Assembly (NCBI RefSeq): GCF_025526975.1
Contig: NW_026515704.1
Coordinates: 1 to 64,000 of the forward strand
Origin: Fimicolochytrium jonesii
Lineage: Eukaryota
Length of the DNA stretch: 64,000 bases
Direction of reading: 5' to 3'
Position 1 is the first letter of the stretch. Each line of letters opens with the position of its first letter. Under the pieces are notes generated by a model. That model did no database searches and had not been told where the DNA came from. It saw only the letters and a program-made list of their open reading frames with translations. Shown here in pieces: positions 24,377 through 48,846 of this stretch. A program made the translations under genes and the position numbers.

Positions 24377-25225
24377 TGTAATGAGGTGCTGCAGGTGTCA
24401 CCTTAGTGCGGGGAGCGCGTAGGGCATGAGATCATGTGTAGCATAGATTATATTGGAGTTCTACGCTCTGGGGTGACTCACAAAGGAAAGAAAAGCCTTC
24501 GGGCGGCGCCCTGGCAGGTAGAAACTCTAGAATTCTTTCAATACATCCAGCGGAGACAGAACTAGCCTCTGGCAACGGACCTAGCATTATTACATGGTAG
24601 CACCACCCTTCAAGATCTCTCCGCCAACCTACGATGAGCAACTCTCAGGCTGTTATGATCTCGACGACGGAGGCGGAAGCGAAGTAGAGAAGACAGGGCG
24701 AGAGTGATAGGCGACAAGAGATTGTATTGGCGAAACAAGAAACAAGGACTAGAACAGGAGATGAGAAGAACTGGTGTTGATCTGCTGGGGAGGAAGGGAA
24801 CGGACGAAGAGAGGCCGGCTATTTATAGATAGGCAACCCAGCAGATCAGAGAACAACAACAACAAGAGGGGACTGGGGGGGCGCCAGCTATGCTCCTAGA
24901 GCGTGCGTGGCGAGCGTAGAGAGCATTGCTACAGCTGCTGGCTATGGGGAAGTAGTGGGGGGTGTAGAGAAGCCGAGGGGGGATTGGCGAAATGAGAGGA
25001 GAGAGGAGGAGTGACAATATTGCAAGAGGATTGGCAAAATGAGAGGAGAGAGGGGGAGTGGCATTGGCATTGACATTGACACTGACATTGACATTGACAT
25101 TGACACTGACATTGACACTGACATTGACATTGACATTGGCGTTTGACATTTGGCGGTTGACATTGGCGGCTGTCAGTAGGTAAGCTTATGGTATGGGCGC
25201 GTCGTCCATAACAGCACCCCTCTCT

Positions 25226-28200
25226 TTAGCGGCGGCGGCGGCGGCGTGGAGTTTGGTGTGGCCGCAGAGGAGGTGCTACGGGGACAGAGGAAGGCTTGTT
25301 GGGGTACGCGCTGTGGAAGTCCTGGAGGAGTGCGTAGGTATGGGTGAGGTGTTCCACGGGTTCCCAGGTGTTCTCGGAGTCAGGCCAGCCCTGCCATTTG
25401 ACCAAGTACTGAAGGCGACGACAATGGATGCGAGAGTCAAGAATGGCTTCGACAACCCACTCTTCTTGACCCTCAACGGTCTCTGGGCGCGCGGGTTCGG
25501 GTTCGTGTCGTTCGGGGATGGTGAAGCGGGGTTTGAGGAGCGAGACATGGAAGAATTTGTGGATTTTGTACGTAGGCGGGAGCTTGAGCCGGTAGGCGAC
25601 GGGATTGATTTTTTCAACGATGGGGAATGGCCCAATCTTGCGATGGTCGAGTTTCTGAGAGGGCCGGGTTGTATGGAGGTTTTTGCGGAGGAGCCAGACG
25701 TGGTCGCCAGGCTTGAAGTCCGGTCCAGGAATTCGTTTGGCGTCGGCGTAGCGCTTCATTTGATCTTGGGCTTCCTTGAGCTCGAGGGCGAGCTGTTCAT
25801 GGACTTCCCTGATTTGTTTAGCGCGGGCTTCAGCGGCGGGGTTGACGGATTTGGAGGTAGCAGAGGCCGCGAAACTGAAGCGGGGGTGGAGACCCTTGTT
25901 GGCGTAGAAGGGGGTGGTCTGGGAGGCGGACTGATGGGTGTTGTTGTAGGCGAACTCGGCGGACGACAGAAGCTGTTTCCAGTTGTCCTGTTGGTGGTTG
26001 CAAAAGCATCGGAGATACTGCTCCAGGATCTGGTTGGTGCGTTCCGTCTGGCCATCGCTCTGGGGGTGGAAGGCCGAGGAGAGGTTGGCTTTTGCCCCAA
26101 GGAGTTTGAGAAGTTGACGCCAGAACCGGGACTTAAACTGGGGTCCTCGGTCAGAGATGACGTCGTCAGGGAGGCCGTGGAGACGGATGATGCTGTGGAA
26201 GACTAGGTCGGCGGTGGATTCGGCGGATTCTGACTTGCTGCAGGCGATGAAGTGGGCCATCTTGGTGAGGCGACAGTTGACGTTCAGGATGGAGTCGTAC
26301 CCGTCCACGGGAGGCAGGCCGGTAATAAAGTCCAGGGACCAAGATCCCCAAGGGCGGGTAGGGATACTGTTGGGCTGGAGTAGGCCATATGGTTTGTGTC
26401 GACTGGATTTCGCTTGGCTACAGGTATCGCAGGACTTGACGTAGGCCTTGACGAAGCGCCACTGGCTGGGCCACCAGTAGTTGCGGGAGGCGAGTTCGAG
26501 CGTCTTGGACATCCCAAAGTGGCCGACTAGGGGTGTATCGTGCATGTCGTGGCAGACTTCAGCTCGGAGCTCGTTGGTGGGGACATAGACCAGGTTATCG
26601 TGCAGCAGGATCCCATCTTCATCTGAGAACCGCTTGATACGATCTTGGGTTTCCTCAGTTCGTTGGGCGAGGGGTATCTTGAGCTTTTCGCGAATGGTCT
26701 TAGCGAGGGGATTAGAGGCCTGGGCGGCCTTAATCTTGTCAAGCAGCGTGGTATCCATGGGTGTGATGTAGGCAGCCGCGAGTCGAAGGCGTTCGGGAGT
26801 CAAAATTGTGGTTGCCTGGGAGCGGAACGCTTCTTCCCCCTCTTTTAGCTCATGTTCGGAGCGTCGGGAGAGGGCATCGGCTTGGTGCTGCTGGGGACCG
26901 GGGCGATAGGTAATGACAAAGTCAAAATCCGAGAAGAATATCGACCAGCGGGCTTGGCGGCGGTTCCAGGGTGCGGGTTGTCATGAAGTACTGAAGGTTT
27001 TTGTGGTCGGAGGAAACGGTGATCTTGTGACGGGCGCCAATGAGATGGTGGCGCCACTGGGCAAAGGAGTCTTGGATGGCCAGAAGTTCCTTGTCGTATA
27101 TCTCGTAGTTGATCTCTTCGGCCGTGAATTTGCGAGAGTGGAAGGCCACGGGGTGGAGCTGATTGTCCTGGTCAGGTTGGAGGAGAACTGCGCCAAGAGC
27201 GAAGTCGGAGGCGTCAGTTTCGACGACGAAGGGCTTCTCTGGGTCAGGGTGAGCAAGGATGGGGGCGGTGGTGAATGCTTTCTTCAGGTTCTCGAAGGCG
27301 GTGTTTGCGGCGGGTGTCCAGGCGTACGGGATGTCTTTCCGGGTCAGGGCTGTGAGCGGGGTAGCGATCTTGGAATAACCTTGGATGAATCGGCGATAGA
27401 AGTTGGCAAAGCCGAGGAACCGCTGGACGCCTTTGACATTCTTGGGAGGTTCCCAATCCGTGATGGCAGCGATCTTCTTGGGGTCCATCTGGATGCCTTT
27501 CTTGGAGATGATGAAGCCTAGGAACTCAACGGATTCGCGGTTGAATTCGCACTTCTCTGGTTTGGCGTACAACCCATGCTGTCGGAGGCGGGACAAGACT
27601 TTGCGGACATGTTTGGGGTGATCTTCGGGGTTCTTGGAGAATATCAGGATATCGTCGAGGTAGACGACAACAAACACATCGAGAATGTCGCGGAAGATGT
27701 CGTTCATCAGGTACTGGAAGACGCCAGGAGCATTGCTGAGTCCAAAGGGCATGACATTGTATTCAAATAGGCCGTAGCGGCAGCGGAAGGCGGTCTTCCA
27801 TTCATCGCCCGGGCGCATGCGTAAGAGGTTATAAGCGCCGCGGAGGTCGATCTTGGTGAGACGGCGGGCGCCGCGCAAACAATCCATGATACCGTTGATC
27901 AGGGGCAGGGGGGTAGCGATTCTTCACCGTGATGCTGTTCAGGCCTCGATAATCGACGCAGAGGCGGAGAGAACCGTCCTTTTTTTCACGAATAAGACTG
28001 GTGCACCGGCAGGGGACTTTGAGGGTTTGATGAATCCTTTGGCGAGGTTTTCTTCGAGGTATTCGCAGAGTGCCTTCATTTCTGGTTCGCTGAGGCTGTA
28101 GATCAGGCCGAAAGGTGGCTGCTTGCCTTCTTCCAGATCGATTGGACAGTCGTAGGGCCGGTGCTCGGGGAGAGTGTCAGCATTTCTCTTTTTCGAAAAC

Positions 28201-29135
28201 GTCGGCGAAGTCTCGATACTCAGGGGGCAGGAAGTCTTTGATGTCTTTCTCGGGTGTCGGGGGTTTACTGGGGCTAGGCGAGGCTGGGAGATCGGGTTTC
28301 GCAGGGTTGGCGTAGGCGACAAAGACCTGGTCATGCCTTGCTGCGACCCGGAAGGCTGGGGCGGAGATGAACGAGACTCGGAGCGGCGTGGGAGCCGGTC
28401 CTGGGGCGCTGAAGCGAGATACCTTGGGTACTGGAATCGACCATGTTTCGTCGACGGGGACTTCATCCTGGGGGATGCGGATCAAGGGCTCGGGGGTTCT
28501 GGCGGGTGCTGGGCTCGGGGGTGCTGGAGAGTTGTCCCAATTCGCGAATTCATGGTACAGACAGTCGCAACGGAAACCGACCTAAAGGTTCTTGAAGTCA
28601 AGGTTAATGTCGTGGAGGCGGAGCCAGGGGAGACCGAGGAGGATCGGAGCATGGGGTGATTTGGTGACATGGAAGACGAGTTCTTCGAAGTGGTCGTCGA
28701 CCCACATGCCTACTGGTTGGGTGTGATGGGTGATTGGCCCAGCAGAGCTGGGTTGACCGTCAACAAGTTCGATCGTCAGTGGACGCTGATGCGGGACTAG
28801 AGCGATGCGGTGTTTGCGGGCAAAGTCTCTGTCAATGAAGCAGGACAGGGCACCATTGTCGATCATGGCTGAGGTAGGTATTGGGGCGCGGCTGGATGAT
28901 ACCATGATGGTAACGGGGTAGTTGAAGCGTTCGAGGGGACCCAGCGCAAGCATGGCGCGGGGGTTAATTTCGGAGTTTTCGACATGGGCAGCGGCTAGGA
29001 GGGTTGTGTCGGCTATAACGGAGTCGGGAACCAGGGGGGTTGCCTCTCCCGTTGCAGGAGCTGTGAGGTTAGGAGGCCCGGGGCGGTGTGTGTTGTCCAG
29101 TCGCTGGGGCTTTACTGCGGCTGGACTTTGGGAAA
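25226..29135 (-). pseudogene. pol: A1 pol (protease, RT, RNase H, integrase, chromodomain), several frameshifts
   Basis: [64 protein letters not shown], split across ORFs. Confidence 0.93.
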
Positions 29136-30105
29136 ACCCTGTTCGGTGGAGGGTTCTTTGATGTCAACGTTGGCGGCACGGGTGGTGGTCTTGTTCTTGA
29201 CGGGGCAGACTTTTGCAATGTGCCCCGCACCACCGCAGTAAAGGCAGAGGCTGTTGGAAATGCGGCGTTGGCGTTCCTGAGGGCTCAGAGGGCCGCGGGG
29301 ACGAGCGGCGTCAATCTGCATAGGCTCGCTGTGGTCGACAGTGGTGGTAGTAGTAAACGAGGTATGGGGAACCGGGAAGGTCTGGCAGCTTCTGTTTCGC
29401 TCCAGGCGGCGCTCAAACAGCCGGTTATCGCACTGGATAGCCTGCTCCATCACCACATCAATGGTGGCCGCAGGGGGCATCGTGAGCATCTTTGACGTCT
29501 TCTTTGAGGCCACGGCGGAAGGTAGCGATCAGGGCCTGGTCGTTCCAGGAGACATCGCATTGTAGCTGGCGGAACTCAGCGACGTACTCGGTTGCTGCAC
29601 GGGTTTGGCGAAGGTTCTGGAGCTTGTTTTCAGAGGTGCAGACCCTGTGGCTGTCTCCGAAGACCGATTGCATCTGACTGATAAAACTATCGAAGTCCTG
29701 AAGGCTGTGATCTTGGCGTTCGACTAGGGGCGCCATCCAGGCTTGCGCAGTACCGGTGAGGTAGGTGCCAATAGTTTGGATCTTGATGATGTTGCTGGGG
29801 TAGCGGTCGGGCTGGAGAGCAAACATCAACCGGATGTTGTTCAACCACCCACGGAATTTGCTGCGGGTACCATCAAACTTCTCGGGCGAGCTGATTCTTG
29901 GCTCCAGAGCAGGGTTGGTGGCTTGGGGACGGGTGTACGTATTGGCTTGAACCTGGGCGGCGATGCTCTGGGCAGCTTGTGCGTCGGCTTGGGCTTGCGC
30001 TAGGTTGGCCTGCAAGTTGGCGTTTTGGCTTTGCAAGGCGGCGATGGCTTGGCACATATCGTTCCATTGCTTGGCGGTGAAAGGTACGGATTCGGGTTGG
30101 GACAT
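29112..30105 (-). pseudogene. gag: A1 gag, frameshifted by a 5 nt deletion near 29490
   Basis: PEKFDG, EPMQID, zinc knuckle [14 protein letters not shown]; the intact version is in A2. Confidence 0.92.
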
Positions 30106-30742
30106 GGCGAAAAAGGTCTGTCGGATGCAGGGCTGGACGGGTTCTGAACTTCGCAGTGTTGGAGCAGATCAAACTGTTATGATCTCGACGACGGAGGCGG
30201 AAGCGAAGTAGAGAAGACAGGGCGAGAGTGATAGGCGACAAGAGATTGTATTGGCGAAACAAGAAACAAGGACTAGAACAGGAGATGAGAAGAACTGGTG
30301 TTGATCTGCTGGGGAGGAAGGGAACGGACGAAGAGAGGCCGGCTACTTATAGATAGGCAACCAGCAGATCAGAGAACAACAACAACAAGAGGGGACTGGG
30401 GGGGCGCCAGCTATGCTCCTAGAGCGTGCGTGGCGAGCGTACTAGAGCATTGCTACAGCTGCTGGCTATGGAGAAGTAGTGGGGGGTGTGGAGAAGCCCA
30501 GGGGGGATTGGCGAAATGAGAGGAGAGAGGAGGAGTGACGATATTGCAAGAGGATTGGCGAAATGAGAGGAGAGAGGGGGAGTGGCATTGGCACTGACAT
30601 TGACACTGACATTGACATTGACATTGACACTGACATTGACACTGACATTGACATTGACATTGGCGTTTGACATTTGGCGGTTGACATTGGCGGCTGTCAG
30701 TAGGTAAGCTTATGGTATGGGCGCGTCGTCCATAACACAGGC

Positions 30743-33700
30743 GGGTGCTAATACCGCCGTTAGATATGCGATAGTCAACAATGACCGCTTAGAACTTGAT
30801 CCATTTGAAAACCCGCATCGAAGGGCGCAACGGCTCGACGGCGACCAACGCCAAGGAAACGGCCCCGCAGAGCGTAACCGCCCCTTGCACAGGCGCAGGG
30901 GGGTACCCCCGTGGTCGTCACCTGGAAGGAGGCACTCCCGCTCACGCTCACCTCGTCGACGTCTAAGCCCGGACCCCCGACGCCGGAAATGGACGCCAGA
31001 GGGATACAGGCGCGGCTAGCGAAGAGCGTCAGCGCAAGGCGGCCGCCGAGAAGGAGTTCCGAACCACCTTGGCTAAGATGCTGACCAAGTTTGATGGTAA
31101 GGCTAACGGTAAAGACATGGTCGCCAAACTGGAAGAGTTCGTCGACGCCCACCTACGCTATCTGGAAGCCACCAAATTCAGAACGGAGGACGGGGACGTG
31201 AAACACTTCATAGCCCACTTGTCGGGAGACGCCGCTGAGTGGTGAAAGCTCGAGGCTCGCTCCAGAGAGCCTCCCGCCACCCGGGAACGGTTCCGGAAGG
31301 CACTCAGGCGCAGATTCTACCCCGCCAACCTCCGTAATTCAGTCGAGGCGAAACTGGCCCCCCCTGAAGTTCAAAGACAGCATGTCAGACTACGTTTTGG
31401 CCTTCAACGCACTGACCACACAGATCGCTATCCTCCCCGAAAAGGAACATCTCACGCCGCGACAGGAACTTGAGTACTTCCTGAATGGGCTGACCTTCCA
31501 CCAGGTCGGACGTCGCATCCGTGAGCAGTGTTACCAGTTCATCCTACAACAGGGCAACGAGGACGAAGACACCGCCATCAAGACCCTTCAGGAAGCCGCC
31601 CAGAGGGCCTTCCGCATCGGGGGTTATGCCGACGGGATCGCCCGCATTTCGTAAGACGGCAAACGGATCCAACCCGCTACGGCCACTCCGGCCCAGGCTC
31701 GCGACAAGCGCGATACACCCCGCACCTTCAACTCCAACCGGGGACCCCTTGGGAAGGAGAGGAAAACTCAGCGAGGCAAATGTCACACTTGCGGCAGCAA
31801 TGACCACTACGCCCGAGCGTGCCCTAAGAACCCGGACTGACTCAAGATCTCGGCGGCGCCCGCCGAGGCCTTCGACGATGACAACGACGAGTTCCATTTG
31901 GCCGCGGAGGAGCCCCCAAGCCCCGCATACTCCTCCCACAGTCAGGATTTTCTCCCCAGGGCCTGACCGCCTGCAGCGCCTCAGCGTCAAGACAACCCGA
32001 GGGACCTACCGGACCCTGACTGCAGGACACCATTCCGGAATACCGCCCCGGGCCCGTCATCGACAAGCACACGTTCATGGTCCATAGACGTGTTGGCGGC
32101 ATCTTCTGCCGCATCCTCATAGACACTGGTTGCAATACCATGCTCATCAGCGACTCATTCGCCCATCGCCATGATATTAACACGTACGACTGTCCCACGC
32201 CGCTTGAGGTGCGCTGGGGTGACAAAGCCGGATCATACGGCGCCACGCGAATGATTTGTGCCGACCTCTCCGTCTTCACGGAGGAACAAATACCTCATAA
32301 GACCCCTTGGGTCCCGTTCGTCGTGGCCCCAATCCGCGCGGATGTTATCCTAGGGCTACCCTACATTCCTGGACCTTGACCTCCTACGCTTATGGCGCGA
32401 CAATGGGTTCCCGGCGCTTCAATTCGAGGCTAATGCAACCGTACTAACTTTCCGAGCTCAAACTACCACCCGCCGATGGCAACAACCCAGCGCTTGCGCA
32501 GCCCGGTTACTCGAACCTCATACGGGCCCTTGCCCCCGCCATTTCTACCCAAAGCGCGTGGCCTTGAATGAGGAGGGCTTCCTCACGGCCAAACAATTCA
32601 AGCGAGCGATCAAGAGGGATAAGACCACCGAGGTCTATACTGCATGGGTCTCACGCACGGACACGGGGGTGGACCTGGCCACAGACGACGCCCTCACGGA
32701 CGTCGCCGAAGCCGAGGCTAACTTCGTTCGCACGGTCAAGGCGAAGAAACGTGCGATCCTTGCGGACCGAAAGGCAACGGCCACTCCGGATACCACCCCA
32801 GAGGATCCACTCGCGTCGGTCGCCGCCGACCACCCTCTTCGCCCCACGTTGGAACAGTTTACAGAAACCCTCTTCACGGAACAGACCGGCCTCCCGCCGG
32901 ACCGCGGCGACGACAACTTCAGCATTAATCTGAAGCCCGGCTCCAAGCCTGTCATGCTCCCACTCCGCCACTTGGCCCCCGATGAACTCGACAAGCTACG
33001 GCAGCAACTCGAGCGCCTATCATCCCGCGGGTGGATCTCCCACTCTAAGAGCCCCTTGGGGGCACCCATACTGTTTGCCCTGAAGAAGGACGGTGGCCTC
33101 CGCTGCTGCATCAACTACCGGGCCGCCTCAACAAGATGACCCATAAGGACGCCACACCCCTCCCAAACCTCAACGAGCTTCGGGACCGCCTCGTCGGCAT
33201 GAAGGTCTTCACCCCTATCGACATCCACGATGCCTACCACTGCATCCTCATTTGGGAGGAAGACCGTGAGAAGACTGCCTTCCGGACGCGCTTCGGCCAC
33301 TTCCAGTACAACGTATTACCCTTTGGGCTGACGAACGCGCCCGCGACGTTCCAACGCCTCACGAACAAACTCCTGGGTGACAAGTACGATTCATACCTCA
33401 TCTCTTACCTTGATGACATCCTTATTTTCAGCCCCAACATGGACTCACACATCGGGCATGTCAGTGAAGTGCTGAAGACCCTCTCGTCTCACCGCCTCCA
33501 CGTGAAACCGTCCAAATGTCAGTGGGCAGTGGACCAGGTCGAGTTCTGCAGGCACATGGTCGGTAAGGACGGCCTCTCCATCGCCCCGTCCAAGGTCGAG
33601 GCTGTCCGCACTCGACCCGAACCCACCAGCGCCCTCGAGCTCCTCTCCGTTATGGGGCTAGTCAACTATGTCAAGGAATACATTCCGCATTATGCTGATA

Positions 33701-35969
33701 CAGCCCTCCTACTGACGAACCTTCCATCCGGCACGCGCCCGTGGGAGTGGGGCGCCGAGGAACAAGCAGCATTCGACACCATCAAGGCGCGCGTCGCCGA
33801 TGCCCCTTGCCTGGCGTTGTTTGACCCCGATAAGTTCCCCTACGTCTTCTCTGACGCGTCGGGCTTCGCCGTAGGGGGCTGGATTGGTCAGGGCAGGGAC
33901 GGCAACTTTCCCAAGCCGAATCCACTGCCCACCACAAAAAAGGGCCTCAATAACCTTCCGCGCCTCCGCGTCATCTCATATTACTCACGCAAGATGGCTC
34001 CGGCCGAAACCCGATACCCCGTGCACGAACAGGAGCTCCTCGCATTGGTCAAAGTGATCCGCGCTAACCGCCACTACCTCGTTGATCGCCAATTCTGTGC
34101 ATTCGTCGACCACGAATCCCTCATATACCTCCAGAATCAGCCTCATCTCTCCCGGCGCCAACTGGATGGGTGGAGTTCCTTCAGGACTACAACTTCACCA
34201 TCGAATACCTCTCCGGCGAGTTCAATCACATCGCCGACATACTCAGCCGCACACGGCTGTACGCCCCAAAGTGCGCCAGCTGTCAGATGAAGGTCGAAGT
34301 GTTCTCCATTGTCACCGGGACACCTCTACCGGACATCACCGGCCGCCTCCCTACTGACGCCAAGTGGCTCACTGCGCTCGACGATGACAAGTTCTGCAAG
34401 GACGCCCTCGCCCACCTGCAGACCACCGAGACGAACCCCGACGACCCCTCTACCCTCTCGGGTTTTGCCCGCCGCCTCACGCGCGACGACCGCGGCTTCC
34501 TTTTGTACCATGGCCGCCGCTATGTCCCCGAGGGCCTTCGGGGCCCCCTCCTCAGGTTCTATCATGACTCCCTGGCCAACGGCGGCCACTCGGGTGTCCA
34601 GCGCACCGTCGCCAAACTCCTCGCGCTCTACTACTGGCCCCGCCTCAAGCGCAAGGTCCACCAGTACGTCTGGACTTGTCCTGACTGCCAACGCAACAAG
34701 CAGGCTTCCAACTTCGGGCTCCTACGCAGCATTCCGGTCCCCAACGAGCGCTGGTGTTGCGTCGGCTTGGACATCTACTTCCCCACGGCAAACTCTAAGG
34801 GGGGGGAAGCAGGAGACGAGTCCGTCATGGACAAGGGTTAGGGTTTTAGGGTTAGGGTTAGGGTTAGCCGTCCTCATCCTGGTGGACTACTTATCCAGCT
34901 GCGTAATCCTCATCGAGACCCACGCCAAGGCGACGGCAAAGGAACTCGCCCCGCTGTTCTTCGACCAGGCCTTCCGCATCACGGGCATGCCCCACACGAT
35001 CATCAGCGATTGGGACACCAAATGGACCGGCGCCTTTTGGAAGCACCTCCTGAAGTGCGCCGGCGTAGAGCAGGAACTCTCGTCGGCACGCCACCAACAG
35101 ACCAACGGCAAGACGGAGAACGTCATCAAGACAATCAAGAAGATGATGGTCCCCTACCTGAACTACACCGGCTCAAACTGGCGCAAGATGCTTCCCCTCC
35201 TCGAGTACAACTACAACAGGACGCCCCAGACCTCCACGGGCATGTCCCCGTACGAGATCGACATCGGGTACATCCCGAAGGTACCAGACCAATGGGGTAC
35301 CAGCGACCCAACAGAGCAACTGAAACAGGCCGATCAAAAGTGCATTGAGGAGCGCATGCAACAACTGACCGAGGTGAGCCGCATCGTTCAGCACAGACTC
35401 CGAGAGGCCCAGGACAGGCAGGCAAGATACTATGACAGGAACAAGAATACGGACGCGTTCGTAGTAGGCGACCAGGTCCTGCTGAACCGCGAAGGCATCC
35501 AGATCAAGAGTATCTCGGCCCGAAACAAGAAGCTGTCCACGCTATGGATCGGGCCCTTCACCGTCAGCGGAAAAGGGCCCCACCCGCACACCTACGAGCT
35601 GGAGCTCTCCCACGAGTTCAGTGGACTACACCCGGTGTTACACGTCATCATCCTACGCAGGTACAACCCTCCGGAGAACGGCCCATACCGGAAAGTGGAC
35701 GCACCACCCCCCCCAGAGGAGTCAACGGCGAACTCGAACACCAAGTTGAAGACATCCTCGACTCCAAGTGGGTACGCAACACCGAGATGTTCCTGGTCAA
35801 ATGGGCCGGCTACGACGTGTCCCAGAACACCTGGGAGCCACTCCGACACGTCCATGACACCTCGGCCCACAAGCGATATGTCCGAAAGCAAGCCGCCAAA
35901 CGCCAGGAGACTCGGGAGACCAAGGCGAAGGAGAGAGCGGCAGTCTCTCGTCGCCGTAAACGTATCTGA
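30743..35969 (+). pseudogene. B1 gag-pol remainder (gag, protease, RT, RNase H, integrase, chromodomain), disrupted
   Basis: KFDG, CHTCGSNDHYARAC knuckle, [56 protein letters not shown]; multiple stops and frameshifts. Confidence 0.92.
34838..34865 (+). repeat. 28 nt telomeric insertion inside the B1 integrase
   Basis: ACAAGGG[TTAGGGTTTTAGGGTTAGGGTTAGGGTT]AGCCGTC versus the empty site ACAAGGGAGCCGTC in B2 (~44190-44203, minus strand). Confidence 0.95.
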
Positions 35970-36032
35970 ACCTTGTACATACGTGAAAACAGAGTTTCTA
36001 CTATCCGAAATGATCATTACCGTTACGGACTC

Positions 36033-36220
36033 ATGCGGGTGGGTACTAGTACCAAGGCCTATGATGCGGGCGGGTACATAGTACCAGGGCCTATGATGCG
36101 GGCGGGTACGTGGTCCCAGGGCCTATGCGAGCGGGCAAGCAAGGTGTCAGGGCTCATGCGGGCGGGTATGCAATACCAAGGCCTAGGATGCGAGCGAATG
36201 CGAGGCACCAGGGCTCAGGA
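36033..36220. repeat. ~33 bp degenerate tandem repeat (~5-6 copies) downstream of B1 pol
   Basis: Recurring ATGCGGGCGGGTAC..GTACCAGGGCCTATG. Confidence 0.8.
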
Positions 36221-36305: not shown

Positions 36306-39300
36306 CTAAATACCAGCCTGTTTGGCGAAAGACCATTGGCAACGTGAGCCGTGGCAGGCGGTCCCCATGCCACAACGCAGCGGGACGAACTGCTGGACCT
36401 TCATCTGGCTAGATGGAGCGCATCACGTCAGTGGCGGGACCTGTCGGAAATTCACGACTGTTGTACTTACGCGCGGACATGCCCCATACACTGGATGTGG
36501 TCGCAAGGGAAGACCCGCACGTCCTCGGCCAGACAATCGCAGTCGGGCCACACACAGGTGCAGGGTAGCGCCTGGCAGAAGAGCGGCGCTTCACACTCCT
36601 CCCCGAAACCGTCCACGTACCCACACGTGAACTCCCTGATGGGCGTGTCGGTCTGTCGGGAAGAGACGTGAGCTGTCAGTCACCCCTCGGGAACCGCCCA
36701 TGACATGCGGTTCCTTACGGTGTTATCACAGAGCGGGAGGATGCAAGGCCGGCATATAACGTGCTGGCACGCCAAGAGGAACATCTTGCGGGGGCGGTAC
36801 ATATTGCAGTTCCAACACGTAGGTCGGGCCAGTGGAGCCGGGGGCTCCGGGGTACTGTCCGAGTGCACCTCGGGGGTGTCCTGAGATAGAATTGGTCAAA
36901 CCACGTAAGTTCAGTCAATCTGTTATGATCTCGACGACGGAGGCGGAAGCGAAGTAGAGAAGACAGGGCGAGAGTGATAGGCGACAAGAGATTGTATTGG
37001 CGAAAACAAGAAATAAGGACTAGAACAGGAGATGAGAAGAACTGGTGTTGATCTGCTGGGGAGGAAGGGAACGGACGAGGAGAGGCCGGCTATTTATAGA
37101 TAGGCAACCCAGCAGATCAGAGAACAACAACAACAAGAGGGGACTGGGGGGGCGCCAGCTATGCTCCTAGAGCGTGCGTGGCGAGCGTAGAGAGCATTGC
37201 TACAGCTGCTGGCTATGGGGAAGTAGTGGGGGGTGTGGAGAAGCCGAGGGGGGATTGGCGAAATGAGAGGAGAGAGGAGGAGTGGCGATATTGCAAGAGG
37301 ATTGGCGAAATGAGAGGAGAGAGGGGGAGTGGCATTGACATTGACATTGACACTGACATTGACATTGACATTGACACTGACATTGACACTGACATTGACA
37401 TTGGCGTTGACATTGGCGTTTGACATTTGGCGGTTGACATTGGCGGCTGTCAGTAGGTAAGCTTATGGTATGGGCGCGTCGTCCATAACATCACCCCTCT
37501 CTTTAGCGGCGGCGGCGGCGGCGTCGAGTTTGGTGTGGCCGCAGAGGAGGTGCTACGGGGACAGAGGAGGGCTTGTTGGGGTACGCGCTGTGGAAGTCCT
37601 GGAGGAGTGCGTCGGTATGGGTGAGGTGTTCCACGGGCTCCCAGGTGTTCTCGGAGTCAGGCCAGCCCTGCCATTTGACCAAGTACTGAAGGCGACGACA
37701 ATGGATGCGAGAGTCAAGGATGGCTTCGACAACCCACTCTTCTTGACCCTCAACGGTCTCTGGGGGCGCGGGTTCGGGTTCGTGTCTTTCGGAGATGGTG
37801 AAGCGGGGTTCAAGGAGCGAGACATGGAAGACATCGTGGATTTTGTACGTAGGCGGGAGCTTGAGCCGGTAGGCGACGGGATTGATTTTTTCAACGATGG
37901 GGAATGGCCCAATCTTGCGATGGTCGGGTTTCTGAGAGGGCTGGGTTGTATGGAGGTTTTTGCGGAGGAGCCAGACGTGGTCGCCAGGCTTGAAGTCCGG
38001 TCCAGGAATTCGTTTGGCGTCGGCGTAGCGCTTCATTTGATCTTGGGCTTCCTTGAGCTCGAGGGCGAGCTGTTCATGGACTTCCCTGATTTGTTTAGCG
38101 CGGGCTTCAGCGGCGGGGTTGACGGATTCGGAGGTAGCAGAGGCCGCAAAACTGAAGCGGGGGTGGAGACCCTTGTTGGCGTAGAAGGGGGTGGTCTGGG
38201 AGGCCGACTGATGGGTGTTGTTGTAGGCGAACTCGGCGGACGACAGAAGCTGTTTCCAGTTGTCCTGTTGGTGGTTGCAAAAGCATCGGAGATACTGCTC
38301 CAGGATCTGGTTGGTGCGTTCCGTCTGGCCATCGCTCTGGGGGTGGAAGGCCGAGGAGAGGTTGGCTTTTGCCCCAAGGAGTTCGAGAAGTCGACGCCAG
38401 AACCGGGACTTAAACTGGGGTCCTCGGTCAGAGATGACGTCGTCGGGGAGGCCGTGGAGACGGATGATGTTGTGGAAGACTAGGTCGGCGGTGGATTCGG
38501 CGGATTCTGACTCGCTGCAGGCGATGAAGTGGGCCATCTTGGTGAGGCGACAGTTGACGTTCAGGATGGAGTCGTACCCGTCCACGGGAGGCAGACCGGT
38601 GATAAAGTCCAGGGACCAAGATCCCCAAGGGCGGGTAGGGATACTGTTGGGCTGGAGTAGGCCGTATGGTTTGTGTCGACTGGATTTCGCTTGGCTACAG
38701 GTATCGCAGGACTTGACGTAGGCCTTGACGAAGCGCCACTGGCTGGGCCACCAGTAGTTGCGGGAGGCGAGTTCGAGCGTCTTGGACATCCCAAAGTGGC
38801 CGGCTAGGGGAGTATCGTGCATGTCGTGGCAGACTTCAGCTCGGAGCTCGTTGGTGGGGACATAGACCAGGTTATCGTGCAGCAGGATCCCATCTTCATC
38901 TGAGAACCGCTTGATACGATCTTGGGTTTCCTCAGTTCGTTGGGCGAGGGGTATCTTGAGCTTTTCGCGAATGGTCTTAGCGAGGGGATCAGAGGCCTGG
39001 GCGGCCTTAATCTTGTCAAGCAGCGTGGTATCCATGGGTGTGAGGTAGGCAGCCGCGAGTCGAAGGCGTTCGGGAGTCAAAATTGTGGTTGCCTGGGAGC
39101 GGAACGCTTCTTCCCCCTCTTTTAGCTCATGTTCGGAGCGTCGGGAGAGGGCATCGGCTTGGTGCTGCTGGGGACCGGGGCGATAGGTAATGACAAAGTC
39201 AAAATCCGAGATGAATATCGACCAGCGGGCTTGGCGGCGGTTCAGGGTGCGGGTGGTCATGAAGTACTGAAGGTTTTTGTGGTCGGAGTAAACGGTGATC

Positions 39301-42300
39301 TTGTGACGGGCGCCAATGAGATGGTGGCGCCACTGGGCAAAGGAGTCTTGGATGGCCAGAAGTTCCTTGTCGTAGATCTCGTAGTTGATCTCTTCGGCCG
39401 TGAATTTGCGAGAGTGGAAGGCCACGGGGTGGAGCTGATTGTCCTGGTCAGGTTGGAGGAGAACTGCGCCAAGAGCGAAGTCGGAGGCGTCAGTTTCGAC
39501 GACGAAGGGCTTCTCTGGGTCAGGGTGAGCAAGGATGGGGGCGGTGGTGAATGCTTTCTTCAGGTTCTCGAAGGCGGTGTTTGCGGCGGGTGTCCAGGCG
39601 TACGGGATGTCTTTCCGGGTCAGGGCTGTGAGCGGGGTAGCAATCTTGGAATAACCTTGGAGGAATCGGCGATAGAAGTTGGCAAAGCCGAGGAAATGCT
39701 GGACGCCTTTGACATTCTTGGGGGGCTCTCAATCCGTGATGGCAGCGATCTTCTTGGGGTCCATCTGGATGCCTTTCTTGGAGATGATGAAGCCTAGGAA
39801 CTCAACGGATTTGCGGTTGAATTTGCACTTCTCTGGTTTGGCGTACAACCCATGGTGTCGGAGGCGGGACAAGACTTCGCGGACATGTTTGGGGTGATCT
39901 TCGGGGTTCTTGGAGAATATCAGGATATCGTCGAGGTAGACGACAACAAACACATCGAGAATGTCGCGGAAGATGTCGTTCATCAGGTACTGGAAGACGC
40001 CAGGAGCATTGCTGAGTCCAAAGGGCATGACATTGTATTTCGAATAGGCCTGTAGCGGCAGCGGAAGGCGGTCTTCCATTCATCGCCCGGGCGCATGCGT
40101 AAGAGGTTATAAGCGCCGCGGAGGTCAATCTTGGTGAGACGGCGGGCGCCGCGCAAACGATCCATGATACCGTTGATCAGGGGCAGGGGGTAGCGATTCT
40201 TCACAGTGATGCTGTTCAGGCCTCGATAATCGACGCAGAGGCGGAGAGAACCGTCCTTTTTCTTCACGAATAAGACTGGCGCACCGGCAGGGGACTTTGA
40301 GGGTTTGATGAATCCTTTGGCGAGGTTTTCTTCGAGGTATTCGCAGAGTGCCTTCATTTCTGGTTCGCTGAGGCTGTAGATCGGGCCGAAAGGTGGCTGC
40401 TTGCCTTCTTCCAGATCGATTGGACAGTCGTAGGGCCGGTGCTCGGGGAGAGTGTCAGCATTTCTCTTTTCGAAAACGTCGGCGAAGTCTTGATACTCGG
40501 GGGGCAGGAAGTCTTTGATGTCTTTCTCGGGTGTCGGGGAGTTACTGGGGCTAGGCGAGGCTGGGTGATCGGGTTTCGCAGGGTTGGCGTAGGCAACAAA
40601 GACCTGGTCATGCCTTGCTGCGACCCGGAAGGCTGGGGCGGAGATGAACGAGACTCGGAGCGGCGTGGGAGCCGGTCCTGGGGTGCTGAAGCGAGATACC
40701 TTGGGTACTGGAATCGACCATGTTTCGTCGACGGGGACTTCATCCTGGGGGATGCGGATCAAGGGCTCGGGGGTTCTGGCGGGTGCTGGGCTCGGGGGTG
40801 CTGGAGAGTTGTCCCAATTCGCAAATTCATGGTACAGACAGTCGCAACGGAAACCGACCGAAAGGTTCTTGAAGTCAAGGTTAATGTCGTGGAGGCGGAG
40901 CCAGGGGAGACCAAGGAGGATTGGAGCATTGGGTGATTTGGTGACATGGAAGACGAGTTCTTCGAAGTGGTCGTCGACCCACATGCCTACTGGTTGGGTG
41001 TGATGGGTGATTGGCCCAGCAGAACTGGGTTGACCGTCAACGAGTTGGATCGTCAGGGGACGCTGATGTTGGACTAGGGGGATGCGGTGTTTGCGGGCAA
41101 AGTCTCTGTCGATGAAGCAGGACAGGGCACCATTGTCGATCATGGCTGAGGTAGGTATTGGGGCGCGGCTGGATGATACCATGATGGTAACGGGGTAGTT
41201 GAAGGGTTCGAGGGGACCCAGCGCAAGCATGGCGCGGGGGTTAATTTCGGAGTTTTCGACATGGGCAGCGGCTAGGAGGGTTGTGTCGGCTATGACGGAG
41301 TCGGGAACCAGGGGGGTGGCCTCTCCCGTTGCAGGAGCTGTGAGGTTAGGAGGCCCGGGGCGGTGTGTGTTGTCCAGTCGCTGGGGCTTTACTGCGGCTG
41401 GACTTTGGGAAAACCCTGTTCGGTGGAGGGTTCTTTGATGTCGACGTTGGCGGCACGGGTGGTGGTCTTGTTCTTGACGGGGCAGACTTTTGCAATGTGC
41501 CCTGCACCACCGCAGTAAAGGCAGAGGCTGCTGGAAATGCGGCGTTGGCGTTCCTGAGGGCTCAGAGGGCCGCGGGGACGAGCGGCGTCAATCAGCATAG
41601 GCTCGCTGTGGTCGACAGTGGTGGTAGTAGTAAACGAGGTATGGGGCACTGGGAAGGTCTGGCGGCTTCTGTTTCGCTCCAGGCGGCGCTCAAACAGCCG
41701 GTTATTGCACTGGATAGCCTGTTCCATCACTACATCAATGGTGGCCGCAGGGGGCATCGTGAGCATCAGGTCTTTGACGTCTTCTTTGAGGCCACAGCGG
41801 AAGGTAGCGATCAGGGCCTGGTCGTTCCAGGAGACATCGCATTGAAGCTGGCGGAACTCAGCGACGTACTCGGTTGCTGCACGGGTTTGGCGAAGGTTCT
41901 GGAGCTTGTTTTCAGAGGTGCGGACCCTGTCGCTGTCTCCGAAGACCGATTGCATCTGACTGATAAAACTATCGAAGTCCTGAAGGCTGTGATCTTGGCG
42001 TTCGACTAGGGGCGCCATCCAGGCTTGCGCAGTGCCGGTGAGGTAGGTGCCAATGGTTTGGATCTTGATGATGTCGCTGGGGTAGCGGTCGGGCTGGAGA
42101 GCAAACATCAACCGGATGTTGTTCAACCACCCACGGAATTTGCTGCGGGTACCATCAAACTTCTCGGGCGAGCTGATTCTTGGCTCCAGAGCAGGGTTGG
42201 TGGCTTGGGGACGGGTGTACGTATCGGCTTGAACCTGGGCGGCGATGCTCTGGGCAGCTTGTGCGTCGGCTTGGGCTTGGGCTAGGTTGGCCTGCAAGTT

Positions 42301-43175
42301 GGCGTTTTGGCTTTGCAAGGCGGCGATGGCTTGGCACATATCATTCCATTGCTTGGCGGTGAAAGGTACGGATTCGGGTTGGGACATGGCGAAAAAGGTT
42401 TGTCGGATGCAGGGCTGGACGGGTTCTGAACTTCGCAGTGTTGGAGCAGATCAAACTGTTATGATCTCGACGACGGAGGCGGAAGCGAAGTAGAGAAGAC
42501 AGGGCGAGAGTGATAGGCGACAAGAGATTGTATTGGCGAAAACAAGAAACAAGGACTAGAACAGGAGATGAGAAGAACTGGTGTTGATCTGCTGGGGAGG
42601 AAGGGAACGGACGAAGAGAGGCCGGCTATTTATAGATAGGCAACCCAGCAGATCAGAGAACAACAACAACAAGAGGGGACTGGGGGGGCGCCAGCTATGC
42701 TCCTAGAGCGTGCGTGGCGAGCGTAGAGAGCATTGCTACAGCTGCTGGCTATGGGGAAGTAGTGGGGGGTGTGGAGAAGCCGAGGGGGGATTGGCGAAAT
42801 GAGAGGAGAGAGGAGGAGTGGCGATATTGCAAGAGGATTGGCAAAATGAGAGGAGAGAGGGGGAGTGGCATTGACATTGACATTGACACTGACATTGACA
42901 TTGACATTGACACTGACATTGACACTGACATTGACATTGGCGTTGACATTGGCGTTTGACATTTGGCGGTTGACATTGGCGGCTGTCAGTAGGTAAGCTT
43001 ATGGTATGGGCGCGTCGTCCATAACACAATCGGGCAACCTCCGTGGACTCACCACTCGCTGTCGCTTGAGAGCCTTCTTCAGGCTGTCCCCTTTGGTGGG
43101 GCCCTTGCCTACTTTCTTCTTGCCCGATGACGGGCCGGCGGCAATGGGCTTGGCAGGAGGAGCTACGCTGGCCAT
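36306..43175 (-). CDS. Four-exon antisense cargo gene of element B: 189 aa tandem RING-like zinc-finger protein. Exons 43175-43053, 36880-36719, 36652-36471, 36408-36306; intron 1 interrupted by A2
   Basis: Donors GTGAGT, GTAAGG, GTAAGT; acceptors CAG, CAG, TAG; introns of 61 (without A2), 66 and 62 nt; CTGAC branch points in introns 2 and 3. Phases join into one open frame. TATAAAA at 43283-43277. Confidence 0.8.
37503..41416 (-). pseudogene. pol: A2 pol, frameshifted in RT (~40050, ~39730)
   Basis: Same domains as A1; [13 protein letters not shown]; integrase-chromodomain ORF 37503-39425. Confidence 0.93.
41389..42387 (-). CDS. gag: A2 Gag (332 aa), intact
   Basis: PEKFDG, retrotransposon gag core, CX2CX4HX4C knuckle. 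Confidence 0.93.
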
Positions 43176-43700
43176 AGTGAAGAGGGGAACGGCGACGGTG
43201 AGAGGTTACGAGATTGGGAGCAAGAAACGTAAGTCCGGGGACTGACGGGAAGGTGCCGAGGGGACTACTGCCTTCCTTTTATATGCCGCAGGGACAAGGA
43301 CCATAGCGCCCCACAACCAGCTGCGGCCGAATCATCTCTACCTCATATCGGCGTGGATCTGATTGCCATCGTGGTGACCACCGGTGATGCCAGCCGCACC
43401 AGTAGAGCCATGCGCACCCCTCATGGCCGACACCTGTGTCAGCTTCACATCAAGTAACAGCGGGGAGCGACTGACAGGTGCAGTCGGTGTCGGAGTGACA
43501 CTTGGCTCTAAGGGGGGTGTAATGAGGTGCTGCAGGTGTCACCTTAGTGCGGGGAGCGCGTAGGGCATGAGATCACGTGTAGCATAGATTATATTGGAGT
43601 CTTACGCTCTGGGGTGACTCCCAAAGGGAAGAAAAGCCTTCGGGCACCGCCCTGGGAGGTAGAAACTCTAGAAGTCTTTCAATAGATCGAGTGGAGACAG

Positions 43701-46700
43701 TTGCATGCGCTCCTCAATGCACTTTCGATCAGCCTGTTTCAGTTGCTCCGTTGGGTCGCTGATACCCCATTGGTCTGGTACCTTCGGGATGTACCCGATG
43801 TCGATCTTGTACGGGGACATGCCCGTGGAGGTCTGGGGCGTCCTGTTGTAGTTGTACTCGAGGATGGGAAGCATCTCGCGCCAGTTCGAGCCGGTGTAGT
43901 TCAGGTAGGGGAGCATCATCTTCTTGATTGTCTTGATGACGTTCTCCGTCTTGCCGTCAGTCTGTTGGTGTCGTGCTGCCAAGAGTTCTTGCTCTACGCC
44001 GGCGCACTTCAGGAGGTGCTTCCAAAAGGCGCCGGTCCTCTTGGTGTCCCGGTCGCTGACGATCGTGTGGGGCATGCCCGTGATGCGGAAGGCCTGGTCG
44101 AAAAACAGCTGGGCGAGTTCCTTTGCCGTCGCCTTGGCGTGGGTCTCGAGGAGGTTTACGCGGCTGGATAAGTAGTCCACCAGGATGAGGACGGCTCCCT
44201 TGTCCATGACGGATTCGTCTCCCGCTTCCCCCCCCTTAGAGTTTGTCGTGGGGAAGTAGATGTCTAAGCCGATGCAACGCCAGCGCTCGTCGGGGACCGG
44301 AATGCTGCGTAGGAGCCCGAAGTTGGAAGCCTGCTTGTTGCGTTGGCAGTCAGGACAAGTCCGGACGTACTGGTGGACCTCGCGCTTGAGGCGGGGCCAG
44401 TAGTAGAGCGCGAGGAGTTTGGCGACGGTGCGCTGGACACCCGAGTGGCCGCCGTTGGCCAGGGAGTCGTGATAGAACCTGAGGAGGGGGCCCCGAAGGC
44501 CCTCGGGGACATAGCGGCGGCCATGGTACAAAAGGAAGCCGTGGTCGTCGCGCGTGAGGCGGCAGGCAAAACCCGAGAGGGTAGAGGGGTCGTCGGGGTT
44601 CGTCGCGGTGGTCTGCAGGTGGGAAAGGGTGTCCTTGCAGAACTTGTCATCGGCAAGCGCAGTGAGCCACTCGGCGTCGGTAGGAGGCGGCCGGTGATGT
44701 ACGGTAGAGGTGTCCCGGTGACAATGGAGAACACTTCGACCTTCAACTGACAGCTGGCGCACTTCGGGGCGTACAGCCGTGTGCGGCTGAGTATGTCGGC
44801 GATGTGATTGAACTCGCCGGGGAGGCATTCGATAGTGAAGTCGTAGTCCTGAAGGAACTCCACCCAGCCAGCCTGGCGCAGGGAGAGATGAGGCTGATTC
44901 TGGAGGCATATGAGGGATTCGTGGTCGACGAATGCACGGAATTGGCAACCAATGAGGTAATGGCGGTTAGCGCGGATCACTTTGACCAATGCGAGGAGCC
45001 CCTGTTCGTGCACGGGGTATCGGGTTTCGGCCGGAGCCATCTTGCGTGAGTAATATGAGATGACGCGGAGGCGCGGAAGGTTATTGAGGCCCTTTTTTGT
45101 GGTGGGCAGTGGATTCGGCATGGGAAAGTTGCCGTCCCTGCCCTGACGATTCCAGCCCCCTACGGCGAAGCCCGACGCGTCAGAGAAGACGTAGGGGAAC
45201 TTATCGGGGTCAAACAACGCCAGGCAAGGGGCATCGGCGACGCGCGCCTTGATGGTGTCGAATGCTGCTTGTTCCTCGGCGCCCCACTGCCACGGGCGGG
45301 TGCCGGATTGAAGGTTGGTCAGTGGGAGGGCTGTGTCAGCATAATGCGGAATGTATTCCTTGACATAGTTGACTAGCCCCATAACGGAGAGGAGCTCGAG
45401 GGTGCTGGTGGGTTCGGGTCGAGCGCAGACAGCCTCGACCTTGGACGGGGCGATGGAGAGGCCGTCCTTACCGACCATGTGCCTGCAGAACTCGACCTGG
45501 TCCACTGCCCACTGACATTTGGACGGTTTCACGTGGAGGCGGTGAGACGAGAGGGTCTTGAGCACTTCACTGACATGCCCGCTGTGTGAGTCCATGTTGG
45601 GGCTGAAAATAAGGATGTCATTAAGGTAAGAGATGAGGTATGAATCGTACTTGTCACCCAGGAGTTTGTTCGTGAGGCGTTGGAACGTCGCGGGCGCGTT
45701 CGTCAGCCCAAAGGGTAATACGTTGTACTGGAAGTGGCCGAAGCGCGTCCGGAAGGCAGTCTTCTCACGGTCTTCCTCCCAAATGAGGATGCAGTGGTAG
45801 GCATCGTGGATGTCGATAGCGGTGAAGACCTTCATGCCGACGAGGCGGTCCCGAAGCTCGTTGAGGTTTGGGAGGGGTGTGGCGTCCTTATGGGTCATCT
45901 TGTTGAGGCGGCCCGGTAGTTGATGCAGCAGCGGAGGCCACCGTCCTTCTTCAGGGCAAACAGTATGGGTGCCCCCAAGGGGCTCTTAGAGTGGGAGATC
46001 CACCCGCGGGATGATAGGCGCTCGAGTTGCTGCCGTAGCTTGTCAAGTTCATCGGGGGCCAAGTGGCGGAGTGGGAGCATGACAGGCTTGGAGCCGGGCT
46101 TCAGATTAATGCTGAAGTTGTCGTTGCCGCGGTCCGGCGGGAGGCCGGTCTGTTCCGTGAAGAGGGTTTCTGTAAACTGTTCCAACGTGGGGCGAAGAGG
46201 GTGGTTGGCGGCGACCGACGCGAGTGGATCCTGTGGGGTGGTATCCAGAGTGGGCGTTGCCTTTCGGTCCGCAAGGATCGCACGTTTCTTCGCCTTGACC
46301 GTGCAAACAAAGTTAGCCTCGGCTTCGGCGACGTCCGTGAGGGCGTCGTCTGTGGCCAGGTCCACCCCCGTGTCCGTGCGTGAGACCCATGCAGTATAGT
46401 CTTCGGTGGTCTTATCCCTCTTGATCGCTCGCTTGAATTGTTTGGCCGTGAGGAAGCCCTCCTCATTCAAGGCCACGCGCTTTGGGTAGAAATGGCAGGG
46501 GCAAGGGCCGTATGAGGTTCGAGTAACCGGGCTGCGCAAGCGCTGGGTTGTTGCCATCGGCGGGTGGTAGGTTGAGCTCGGAAAGTTAGTACGGTTGCAT
46601 TAGCCTCGAATTGAGGCGCCGGGAATCCATTGTCGCGCCATAAGCGTATGAGGTCAAGGTCCAGGATGTAGGGTAGCCCTAGATTAACATCCGCGCGGAT

Positions 46701-48846
46701 TGGGGCCACGACGAACGGGACCCAAGGGGTCTTATGAGGTATTCGTTCCTCCGTGAAGACGGAGAGGTCGGCACAAATCATTTGTGTGGCGCCGTATGAT
46801 CCGGCTTTGTCACCCCAGCGCACCTCAAGCGGCGTGGGACAGTCGTACGTGTTAATATCATGGCGATGGGCGAATGAGTCGCTGATGAGCATGGTATTGC
46901 AACCAGTGTCTATGAGGATGCGGCAGAAGATACCGCCAACACGTCCATGGACCATGAACGTGTGCTTGTCGATGACGGGCCCCGGGCGGTATTCCGGAAT
47001 GGTGTCCTGCAGTCAGGGTCCAGTAGGTCCCTCGGGTTGTCTGGACGCTGAGGCGCTGCAGGCGGTCAGGCCCTGGGGAGAAAATCCTGACTGTGGACGG
47101 AGTATGCGGGGCTCGGGGGCTCCTCCGCGGCCAAATGGAACTCGTCATTGTCATCGTCGAAGGCCTCGGCGGGCGCTGCCGAGATCTTGAGTCGGTCCGG
47201 GTTCTTAGGGCACGCTCGGGCGTAGTGGTCCTTGCTGCCGCAAGTGTGACATTTGCCTCGCTGAGTTTTCCTCTCCTTCCCAAGGGGTACTCGGTTGGAG
47301 TTGAAGGTGCGGGGCGTATCGCGCTTGTCGCGAGCCTGGGACGGAGTGGCCGTAGCGGGTTGGATCCGTTTGCCATCTTACGAAATGCGGGCGATCCCGT
47401 CGGCATAACCCCCGATGCGGAAGGCCCTCTGGGCGGCTTCCTGAAGGGTCTTGATGGCGGTGTCTTCGTCCTCGTTGCCCTGTTGTAGGATGAACTGGTA
47501 ACACTGCTCACGGATGCGACGTCCGACCTGGTGGAAGGTCAGCCCGTTCAGGAAGTACTCACGTTCCTGTCGCGGCGTGAGATGTTCCTTTTTGGGGAGG
47601 ATAGCGATCTGTGTGGTCAGTGCGTTGAAGGCCAAAACGTGGTCTGACATGCTGTCTTTGAACTTCAGGGCGGCCAGTTTCGCCTCGACTGAATTACGGA
47701 GGTTGGCGGGGTAGAACCTGCGCCTGAGCGCTTTCAGGAACCGTTCCTGGGTGGCGGGAGGCTCTCCAGAGCGAGCCTCGAGCTTCCACCACTCAGCGGC
47801 GTCTCCCGACAAGTGGGCTACGAAGTGTTTCACGTCCCCGTCCTCCGTTCTGAATTCGGTGGCTTCCAGATAGCGTAGGTGGGCGACGACGAACTTGTCC
47901 AGTTTGGCGACCATGTCTTTACCGTTAGCCTTACCGTCGAACTTGGTCAGCATCTTAGCCAAGGTGGTTCGGAACTCCTTCTCGGCGGCCGCCTTGCGCT
48001 TACGCTCTTCGCTAGCCGCCAAATGGTCCTCGCGGCTAACATGTACTCCAGCAAAGGGGCTGTCATCTGGGCGGTCCCTCTCCAGGCGCTCGAATCGCTG
48101 CTGGAGTTGGGCGTTGGTGTTGGCCAGCTGGGCTAGGATTTGGAGGATTGTTGCCTGTCCGTTCTCTTGTCAGGCTGGGGTACGGCTCCTGCGCCGCATC
48201 GGGGAGCGGCTTCGGGTCCTTGCCAGGGAGCGGCTGCGGTAGCGGCTTGCTGAGCGGCCCCTTTGACAGGGTGGGGAGATGCTCCTGCGACCTTGTCGTC
48301 CGCGCCTGTATCGCTCTGGCATCCGATTCCGGCGTCGGGGGTCCGGGCTTTGACGTCGACGAGGTGAGCATGAGCAGGAGTGCCTCCTTCCAGGTGGCGA
48401 CCACGGGGTGACTCCCTGCGCCTGTGCAAGGGGCGGTTACGCTGTTCGGGGCCGTTGCCTTGGCGTTGGTCGCCGTCGAGCCATTGCGCCCTTCGATGCG
48501 GGTGTTCAAATGGATCAAGTTCTAAGCGGTCATTGTTGACTATCGCATATCTGACGGCGGTATTAGCACCCGCCTGAGAGTTGCTCATTGTAGGTTGCCG
48601 GAGAGATCTTGAAGGGTGGTGCTACCATGTAAAAATGCTAGGTCCGTTGCCAGAGGCTAGTTCTGTCTCCGCTCAATGTATTGAAAGAATTCTAGAGTTT
48701 CTACCTCCCGGGGCGCCGCCCGAAGGCTTTTCTTCCCTTTGGGAGTCACCCCAGAGCGTAGGACTCCAATATAATCTATGCTACACATGATCTCATGCCC
48801 TACGCGTTTCCCCGCGCTATGGTGACACCTGCAGCACCTCATTACA
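43701..48846 (-). mobile_element. Family B copy B2, inverted, 3'-truncated within integrase
   Basis: 5' LTR 48628-48846, PBS, gag from ATG 48588, protease, RT (YLND), RNase H and partial integrase; fused to the B1 3' LTR at ~43700. Confidence 0.93.

Follow-up and report, generated by a model that had tools for sequence, protein, structure and literature searches.

Why would a long terminal repeat (LTR) retrotransposon of a chytrid fungus hold, antisense to gag-pol, a spliced gene for a basic protein with two RING-like units? The gene lies in the first 64,000 nucleotides (nt) of contig NW_026515704.1 of Fimicolochytrium jonesii (assembly GCF_025526975.1; hereafter the window), behind the pol gene of B1, a copy of a retrotransposon family that we call family B. 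We give a probability of about one half to the reading that family B regularly carries it as an accessory gene and that its product is a nuclear RING-type ligase or adaptor directed against host silencing.

The gene was recovered by script. With the nested retrotransposon A2 and one copy of the CAATC duplication excised, the minus strand holds four exons, three GT-AG introns and a continuous frame of 189 amino acids (aa; Table 1), as a preliminary description of this sequence had proposed and as the Powellomyces homologues discussed below confirm. The three canonical introns of 61 to 66 nt and the TATA motif of that description were found as well (61, 66 and 62 nt; TATAAAAG), and every protein motif that it quoted is present. 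Without A2, intron 1 is 61 nt long and runs from GTGAGT to CAG with a branch-like TTGAC; introns 2 and 3 have CTGAC as the branch motif. The GC content at third codon positions of the frame is 0.76. Among four acceptors tried for intron 3, only the one at 36408 carries the match to the P. hirtus homologue P0123 into exon 4; the other three gave no such extension and were dropped. A protein profile made from Powellomyces sequences only, run against the 3352 six-frame segments of the window, recovered exon 2 (E = 4e-18) and exon 3 (E = 3e-9), gave E = 0.26 for exon 4, and missed exon 1. Judged by its sequence, the antisense gene is real, conserved and spliced, beyond what chance would give. This copy is probably inactive, because A2 (6.1 kb, in the same orientation as the gene) fills the 61-nt intron 1 and lengthens it to about 6.2 kb.

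The exon 2-3 region had four matches among 1.84 billion representative proteins. Three are real homologues (P0122, P0123 and P0124), all from Powellomyces, and among named sources the gene is recorded only from Powellomyces hirtus and its MELD virus; the fourth, P0125 (E = 7e-4), was not counted because it is a double RING protein of a generic kind. When a single protein served as the query, P0123 and P0124 were the sole finds among 223 candidates. P. hirtus has five annotated gene models on four contigs, namely KAI8911323, KAI8921334/5, KAI8904226 and KAI8903067; three of the five come from the cluster of P0123, two of them adjacent and identical, the third partial and on a contig of just 7,022 nt. 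These models are multi-copy and 91-97% identical, which suits a mobile family, and the intact ones encode 178 aa. When P0123 and P0127 are aligned to the spliced window product, there are no gaps at any of the three splice junctions and identity is 42-44% over residues 35-185 (for P0123, 42%, with a two-sequence E of 6e-42). P0123 retains 19 of the 23 Cys/His residues of the window product, versus 49 of 153 other positions. The retained Cys/His and the kept splice positions speak for conservation of the protein under selection, whether in retrotransposons or elsewhere.

P0122 is DAC81638.1, the "oncoid" of Powellomyces chytrid fungus MELD virus 1 (a 21,205-nt record). It is 40% identical to the window product over 145 aligned positions and keeps 15 of 19 Cys/His. 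P0122 has about 25 extra residues at the position of intron 1 and 25 at that of intron 2, both ending in Gln, as CAG would, and its open reading frame (ORF) terminates exactly at the start of intron 3. Because of these insertions and this stop, the simplest reading of the protein is that P0122 would be the same three-intron gene read unspliced. If so, the GenBank entry was probably annotated without the splicing that this double-RING gene undergoes, and it would need re-annotation. The Rb-binding LxCxE motif, which marks a MELD-virus "oncoid" beside paired CxxC, is absent from P0122 and P0123.

Other searches added no relative. With exon 3 alone as the query, there was no longer homologue and no metagenome locus among 148 candidates. 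In viral contigs, we found no relative of the family-B integrase, of the RING alignment, or of the 407-aa ORF of a MELD-like element that lies elsewhere in the window; the sole match there to the pattern of a polypurine tract (PPT) followed by an LTR (locus L021) was read as chance, and so was a prokaryote locus (L020). The phage collection gave no match. Another locus (L012, positions 4263-3982, minus strand) has a frame similar to the central part of RING unit 1 (E = 1.7e-4); it lies antisense inside an integrase and is without the first CxxC, so we also read it as chance.

Every homologue counted begins with a basic stretch: 7-9 of the first 45 residues are Lys/Arg, versus 11 of the 41 residues of exon 1 in the window. 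This composition and the homologue alignment bear out the basic N-terminus and the two RING-like Cys/His arrays of the preliminary description. The ligands of unit 1 (C63, C66, C79, H81, C84, C87, C105 and C115) are all conserved and have the C3HC4-like spacing of RING-HC domains, with a widened last loop (x9 in the window product and x4 in Powellomyces, versus x2 in the standard domain). Unit 2 reads C-x4-C, C-x-H-x2-C-x2-H, C-x5-C, with a further conserved His and Cys. Very likely these are two zinc-binding units, the first C3HC4-like and the second C3HCHC2-like with two extra conserved ligands. The Pfam domain zf-RING_5 matches all four of the Powellomyces proteins scanned (E = 8e-5 to 4e-3), and none of these four has an IBR match in Pfam, so the RING1-IBR-RING2 architecture of an RBR ligase is not seen. 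The best match among solved structures is the RING of PCGF5 (weak, E = 0.067), and in the Atlas P0123 has mainly RING/IBR clusters as neighbours, at 0.82-0.87 (below 0.9, and hence leads).

RING domains of the HC type and RING1 of RBR proteins are found in E3 ligases, and some viral RING proteins, such as ICP0 of herpesvirus, counteract silencing. Unit 1 resembles the ligase domains in its C3HC4-like spacing, and its widened last loop is as in RBR RING1. A basic N-terminus is another feature that the antisense product shares with these ligases and viral proteins.

The position of the gene fits carriage by the retrotransposon. In the direction of the element, pol and a short repeat array precede the gene and an intact PPT follows it; 1428 nt separate the pol stop from the PPT. 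A coding gene at this place, in antisense to gag-pol, is the layout known from brtn and the plant aORF-3R genes (see below). Family B is a chromodomain Ty3/gypsy family: gag is followed by reverse transcriptase, RNase H and integrase with a C-terminal chromodomain (Pfam on the frames of B1 and B2; tblastn to intact pols), and there is a TG..CA LTR pair with a PPT ahead of the 3' LTR. The closest named relative of its pol is from P. hirtus (73% identical), which is sister to B1 and B2 in a tree of 28 rows (support 99/98, with a bootstrap that was still short of full convergence). This kinship points to a Spizellomycetales chytrid as the probable host. P. hirtus holds both this sister pol and several near-identical copies of the gene, which fits family-borne carriage. 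The sequencing runs that share sequence with the element are two DNA metagenomes, with small shares, and none of those listed is RNA. These two metagenomes contain pieces of 151 nt from the end of pol, the repeats and exons 2-4 at about 93-97% identity; no contig in them bridges pol and the gene. The copy number of the ~32-nt repeats varies among the reads, and a 1-nt deletion in one read falls inside intron 2. We consider it likely that the gene is present throughout family B.

Several observations weigh against a regular accessory gene for a RING-type silencing antagonist. At the level of the protein, every RING score is under the Pfam cut-off (the best is 22-23 bits, versus 27.9), and units 1 and 2 are not detectably alike (hhalign E = 0.14). 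The predicted folds are poor, with a predicted local distance difference test (pLDDT) score of 33.7 for the first, which is unusable, and of 53.2 for the second, whose alignment contained generic RING proteins and is hence biased. The weak Foldseek matches of this second, biased model are mostly RING domains (about 50 columns at 2.5-3.5 A), and none reaches E <= 0.001. RING domains that contact an E2 usually have a hydrophobic residue at Cys1+2, a Leu or Trp in the helix, a Pro after Cys7, and a linchpin Arg. In the alignments, unit 1 keeps one of these four features (the helix Leu); the others are Asn/Lys, Gly, and Glu/Gly. Ligase activity is uncertain because of this. With scores below the cut-offs, no IBR match and most E2-contact residues absent, the antisense product differs from RING and RBR ligases, and its ligase role is a prediction.

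At the level of the element, five of the six coding differences listed are non-synonymous, in single metagenome reads, which give no test of selection; all six leave the conserved ligands untouched, and at two of them the new residue is that of P0122. The gene is behind pol in none of 19 metagenome loci from more distant clade members (24-46% integrase identity), so only a narrow branch has it. Of 12 distant loci inspected, 8 show the next gag frame, and there pol is followed by a gap of about 0.1-1.1 kb with an LTR included, shorter than in B1. No homologue is placed beside a pol gene, the P. hirtus copies being known as gene models, and the sole homologue with a named setting is in the record of a DNA virus rather than a retrotransposon. 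Finally, the element is chimeric at its ends: the 5' and 3' LTRs are only 93.4% alike, and their flanks (CTAGT and GTTGC, respectively) do not match, so there is no shared target-site duplication.

The GTTGC flank belongs to the pol of B2, an inverted family-B copy, which the 3' LTR adjoins exactly at its CA; therefore, the LTR at 43518 probably derived from a third family-B copy that was inserted in B2. The best account is that this third copy entered B2 and later recombined with B1, which removed the 3' half of B2. If that crossover between B copies was homologous, the layout of the family would be preserved. As B2 is cut in its integrase, it is without the region that would hold the antisense gene. 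The preliminary description had placed the gene between the pol of B1 and B1's own PPT and 3' LTR: a PPT does bound the gene on the side of the LTR, so that the gene is internal, and the LTR is probably the third copy's, not part of a clean insertion. A concern raised there, that the 43518 LTR might belong to a separate insertion, was thus partly justified, and the PPT keeps the gene internal.

Could the gene have come from a virus? The closest match is the "oncoid" of MELD virus 1, no B-like pol is named for a MELD virus among the 120 pol matches listed, a MELD-like element lies 14 kb away in the window, and distant clade members are without the gene. So, the gene might be native to the Polinton-like MELD viruses of chytrids, acquired once or recently by the retrotransposon lineage, and a passenger there. 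This seems unlikely, as the MELD-like element of the window has no homologue of the gene; the gene sits neatly between the pol-repeats and the PPT, antisense and with its own TATA box; and the "oncoid" itself may sit in a nested or broken retrotransposon within the MELD virus 1 record.

A second possibility is that the product is a family-borne zinc finger that binds DNA or RNA or serves as a scaffold, and that controls how the element is transcribed, exported as RNA or integrated, with no link to ubiquitin or silencing. Most of the E2-contact residues are absent from unit 1, unit 2 is atypical in its two extra conserved ligands, and the plant antisense ORFs are nuclear and have been proposed to act like retroviral regulators. 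We nevertheless find it improbable, given the RING-HC-like spacing of unit 1 and given that all of the database leads point to RING or RBR proteins.

Third, an ordinary host gene or a piece of another element might have been trapped between two broken B halves by a local rearrangement, as the mismatched target-site duplications, the diverged LTRs (93.4%), the truncated and inverted B2 and the lack of a contig that joins pol and gene could indicate, but this is quite improbable because it requires two precise breaks (just after pol and just before an intact PPT), the homologues are multi-copy and near-identical and belong to no broad host family (the three real matches among the representatives are all from Powellomyces), and a simple homologous crossover between two B copies accounts for the ends.

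If the gene is an accessory gene of family B that counters silencing, then it might work as follows. The genomic RNA of the element is the sense strand, in which antisense introns are unspliced and are copied by reverse transcription; the introns are kept because the sense genomic RNA cannot be spliced there. By analogy with gene23 of maize Grande, the gene's own TATA promoter, in the ~330 nt between the PPT and the ATG, would give a spliced antisense mRNA. The Lys/Arg-rich exon 1 would probably lead to nuclear import of the product, whose RING-like units would target a chromatin or silencing factor of the host. Action on this factor through ubiquitin is a tentative suggestion; action as a non-catalytic adaptor is a slightly more doubtful one. 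A bolder and unlikely version is that chytrid LTR retrotransposons and integrating Polinton-like double-stranded DNA viruses have passed the double-RING gene between them, introns included, as a portable weapon against silencing, and that it encodes a retrotransposon-borne ubiquitin ligase similar to ICP0. If true, an ICP0-like ligase would be common to both sides of the divide between RNA and DNA mobile elements.

Table 1. Coordinates in the window of the antisense gene and of the retrotransposons around it.
Feature	Position	Strand	Remarks
5' LTR of family-B element B1	24377..24558	+	182 nt, TG..CA; left flank CTAGT
A1, nested family-A chromovirus	24651..30737	-	within start of B1 gag; target-site duplication CAGGC
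B1 gag-pol	30743..35969	+	reverse transcriptase, RNase H, H2C2, integrase, SH3, chromodomain
Array of ~32-nt repeats	36032..36214	+	between B1 pol and 3' end of antisense gene
Exon 4	36306..36408	-	end of RING-like unit 2, stop at 36306; then AT-rich 3' region
Intron 3	36409..36470	-	62 nt, phase 2; GTAAGT..ACTGAC..TAG
Exon 3	36471..36652	-	last ligand pair of unit 1 and first six ligands of unit 2
Intron 2	36653..36718	-	66 nt, phase 0, in-frame stop; GTAAGG..ACTGAC..CAG
Exon 2	36719..36880	-	ligands 1 to 6 of RING unit 1; zf-RING_5 of Pfam at E = 1.2e-4, under cut-off
Intron 1, 3' part	36881..36920	-	holds one CAATC copy (36916-36920)
A2, nested family-A chromovirus	36921..43026	-	in intron 1, same orientation as antisense gene; CAATC on both sides
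Intron 1, 5' part, with second CAATC copy (43027-43031)	43027..43052	-	donor GTGAGT
Exon 1, coding part	43053..43175	-	ATG at 43175; 41 aa, 11 Lys/Arg, 1 acidic; resembles a nuclear localization signal
Putative TATA box TATAAAAG	43276..43283	-	~108 nt upstream of ATG; predicted function
Polypurine tract (PPT) AAGGGGGG	43510..43517	+	immediately 5' of 3' LTR
Family-B 3' LTR	43518..43699	+	93.4% identity to B1 5' LTR; right flank is inverted B2 pol
B2, inverted family-B copy	43700..48846	-	96.6% identical to B1; cut in integrase exactly at LTR end

Self-comparison and Pfam annotation of the window resolve nested chromodomain Ty3/gypsy elements of two families, A and B (Table 1). Family A has two full copies, A1 and A2, both on the minus strand; the LTRs of A2 (36921-37490 and 42457-43026) have mismatches at 3 of 570 sites. 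The gag-pol of B1 is damaged: it has frameshifts and, compared with B2, a deletion of 284 nt, and a 28-nt TTAGGG insert (34834-34861), not in B2, splits its integrase. Remnants of a further repeat family, 70-74% alike, lie on both sides of the A/B cluster (23645-24367 and 49567-49883), and a 52-nt inverted repeat is found at 23861-24323, within the left remnant region. Further along the window, a 1238-aa frame (59426-63142, plus strand) contains 132-nt and 24-nt repeats that encode Ser/Thr/Glu-rich units and resembles a surface glycoprotein; it has no Pfam match.

The MELD-like element of the window (1894-22290) is an endogenous MELD/Polinton-like virus. It encodes a 1504-aa fibre-like ORF (Pfam Av_adeno_fibre, E = 5.6e-10), an A32-like ATPase, a chromodomain integrase and a D5-type primase-helicase; two ORFs without Pfam names (407 aa and 252 aa) may be capsid proteins. 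The D5 primase-helicase region (14666-18219) lies between 265-nt inverted repeats that are 84% alike, which suggests a separately mobile or invertible replication module. A 172-aa Cys-rich ORF of this element (18189-18707, minus strand) is unrelated to the RING-like protein. At the left of the MELD-like element, arrays of CCCTAA (1487-1897) lie within a 331-nt repeat.

The layout of the antisense gene has precedents. Boty-like Ty3/gypsy elements of Botrytis cinerea carry an antisense gene, brtn (Zhao et al. 2011, as cited in PMC7264820, PMC8365987 and PMC4227169), so the view of the preliminary description that such a gene is unusual for fungal Ty3/gypsy elements is weakened. As described there, they are also fungal chromodomain Ty3/gypsy elements with an extra antisense gene between pol and the 3' LTR. 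They differ, in a comparison by description only, in that Botrytis belongs to another phylum than the chytrid host and in that the chytrid cargo is tandem RING-like. In plants, the aORF-3R genes (gene23 of maize Grande, rice RIRE2, and TRP28 of Retand) are likewise antisense between pol and the 3' LTR and neighbour tandem repeats, according to excerpts of PMC7264820 and PMC11963269. The same excerpts give them an internal promoter of their own and a nuclear product, both of which are predicted for the chytrid gene. In contrast, they belong to non-chromovirus plant lineages and have TRP28 or SMC-like domains, and the excerpts describe no RING or introns.

On the viral side, the available portion of Starrett et al. 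(PMC8502044) reports six Powellomyces MELD viruses and defines "oncoids" by short motifs. The "oncoid" of MELD virus 1 is a true homologue of the antisense gene, with matching splice positions; it differs in that it is a single unspliced ORF in the record of a double-stranded DNA virus and was named for oncogene-like motifs (PMC8502044). In the literature searched, outside subscription journals and Repbase, we found no LTR element described with an antisense RING gene, and no sharing of a tandem RING-like gene with a double-stranded DNA virus. The accessible parts of PMC3248453 and PMC5408684 make no mention of RING. Thus, the layout is already known from brtn and the plant antisense ORFs, and what is new is the tandem RING-like cargo in a chytrid element and the DNA-virus homologue with matching splice positions.

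To our knowledge, no function is established for the additional antisense genes that LTR retrotransposons carry. According to the accessible part of PMC7264820, they also have no known origin or relatives outside the elements. The chytrid antisense gene has a recognisable and assayable type of domain and a relative recorded from a different class of mobile element, and hence a candidate origin. With it, one can test directly if retrotransposons of fungi have a counter-silencing factor of their own.

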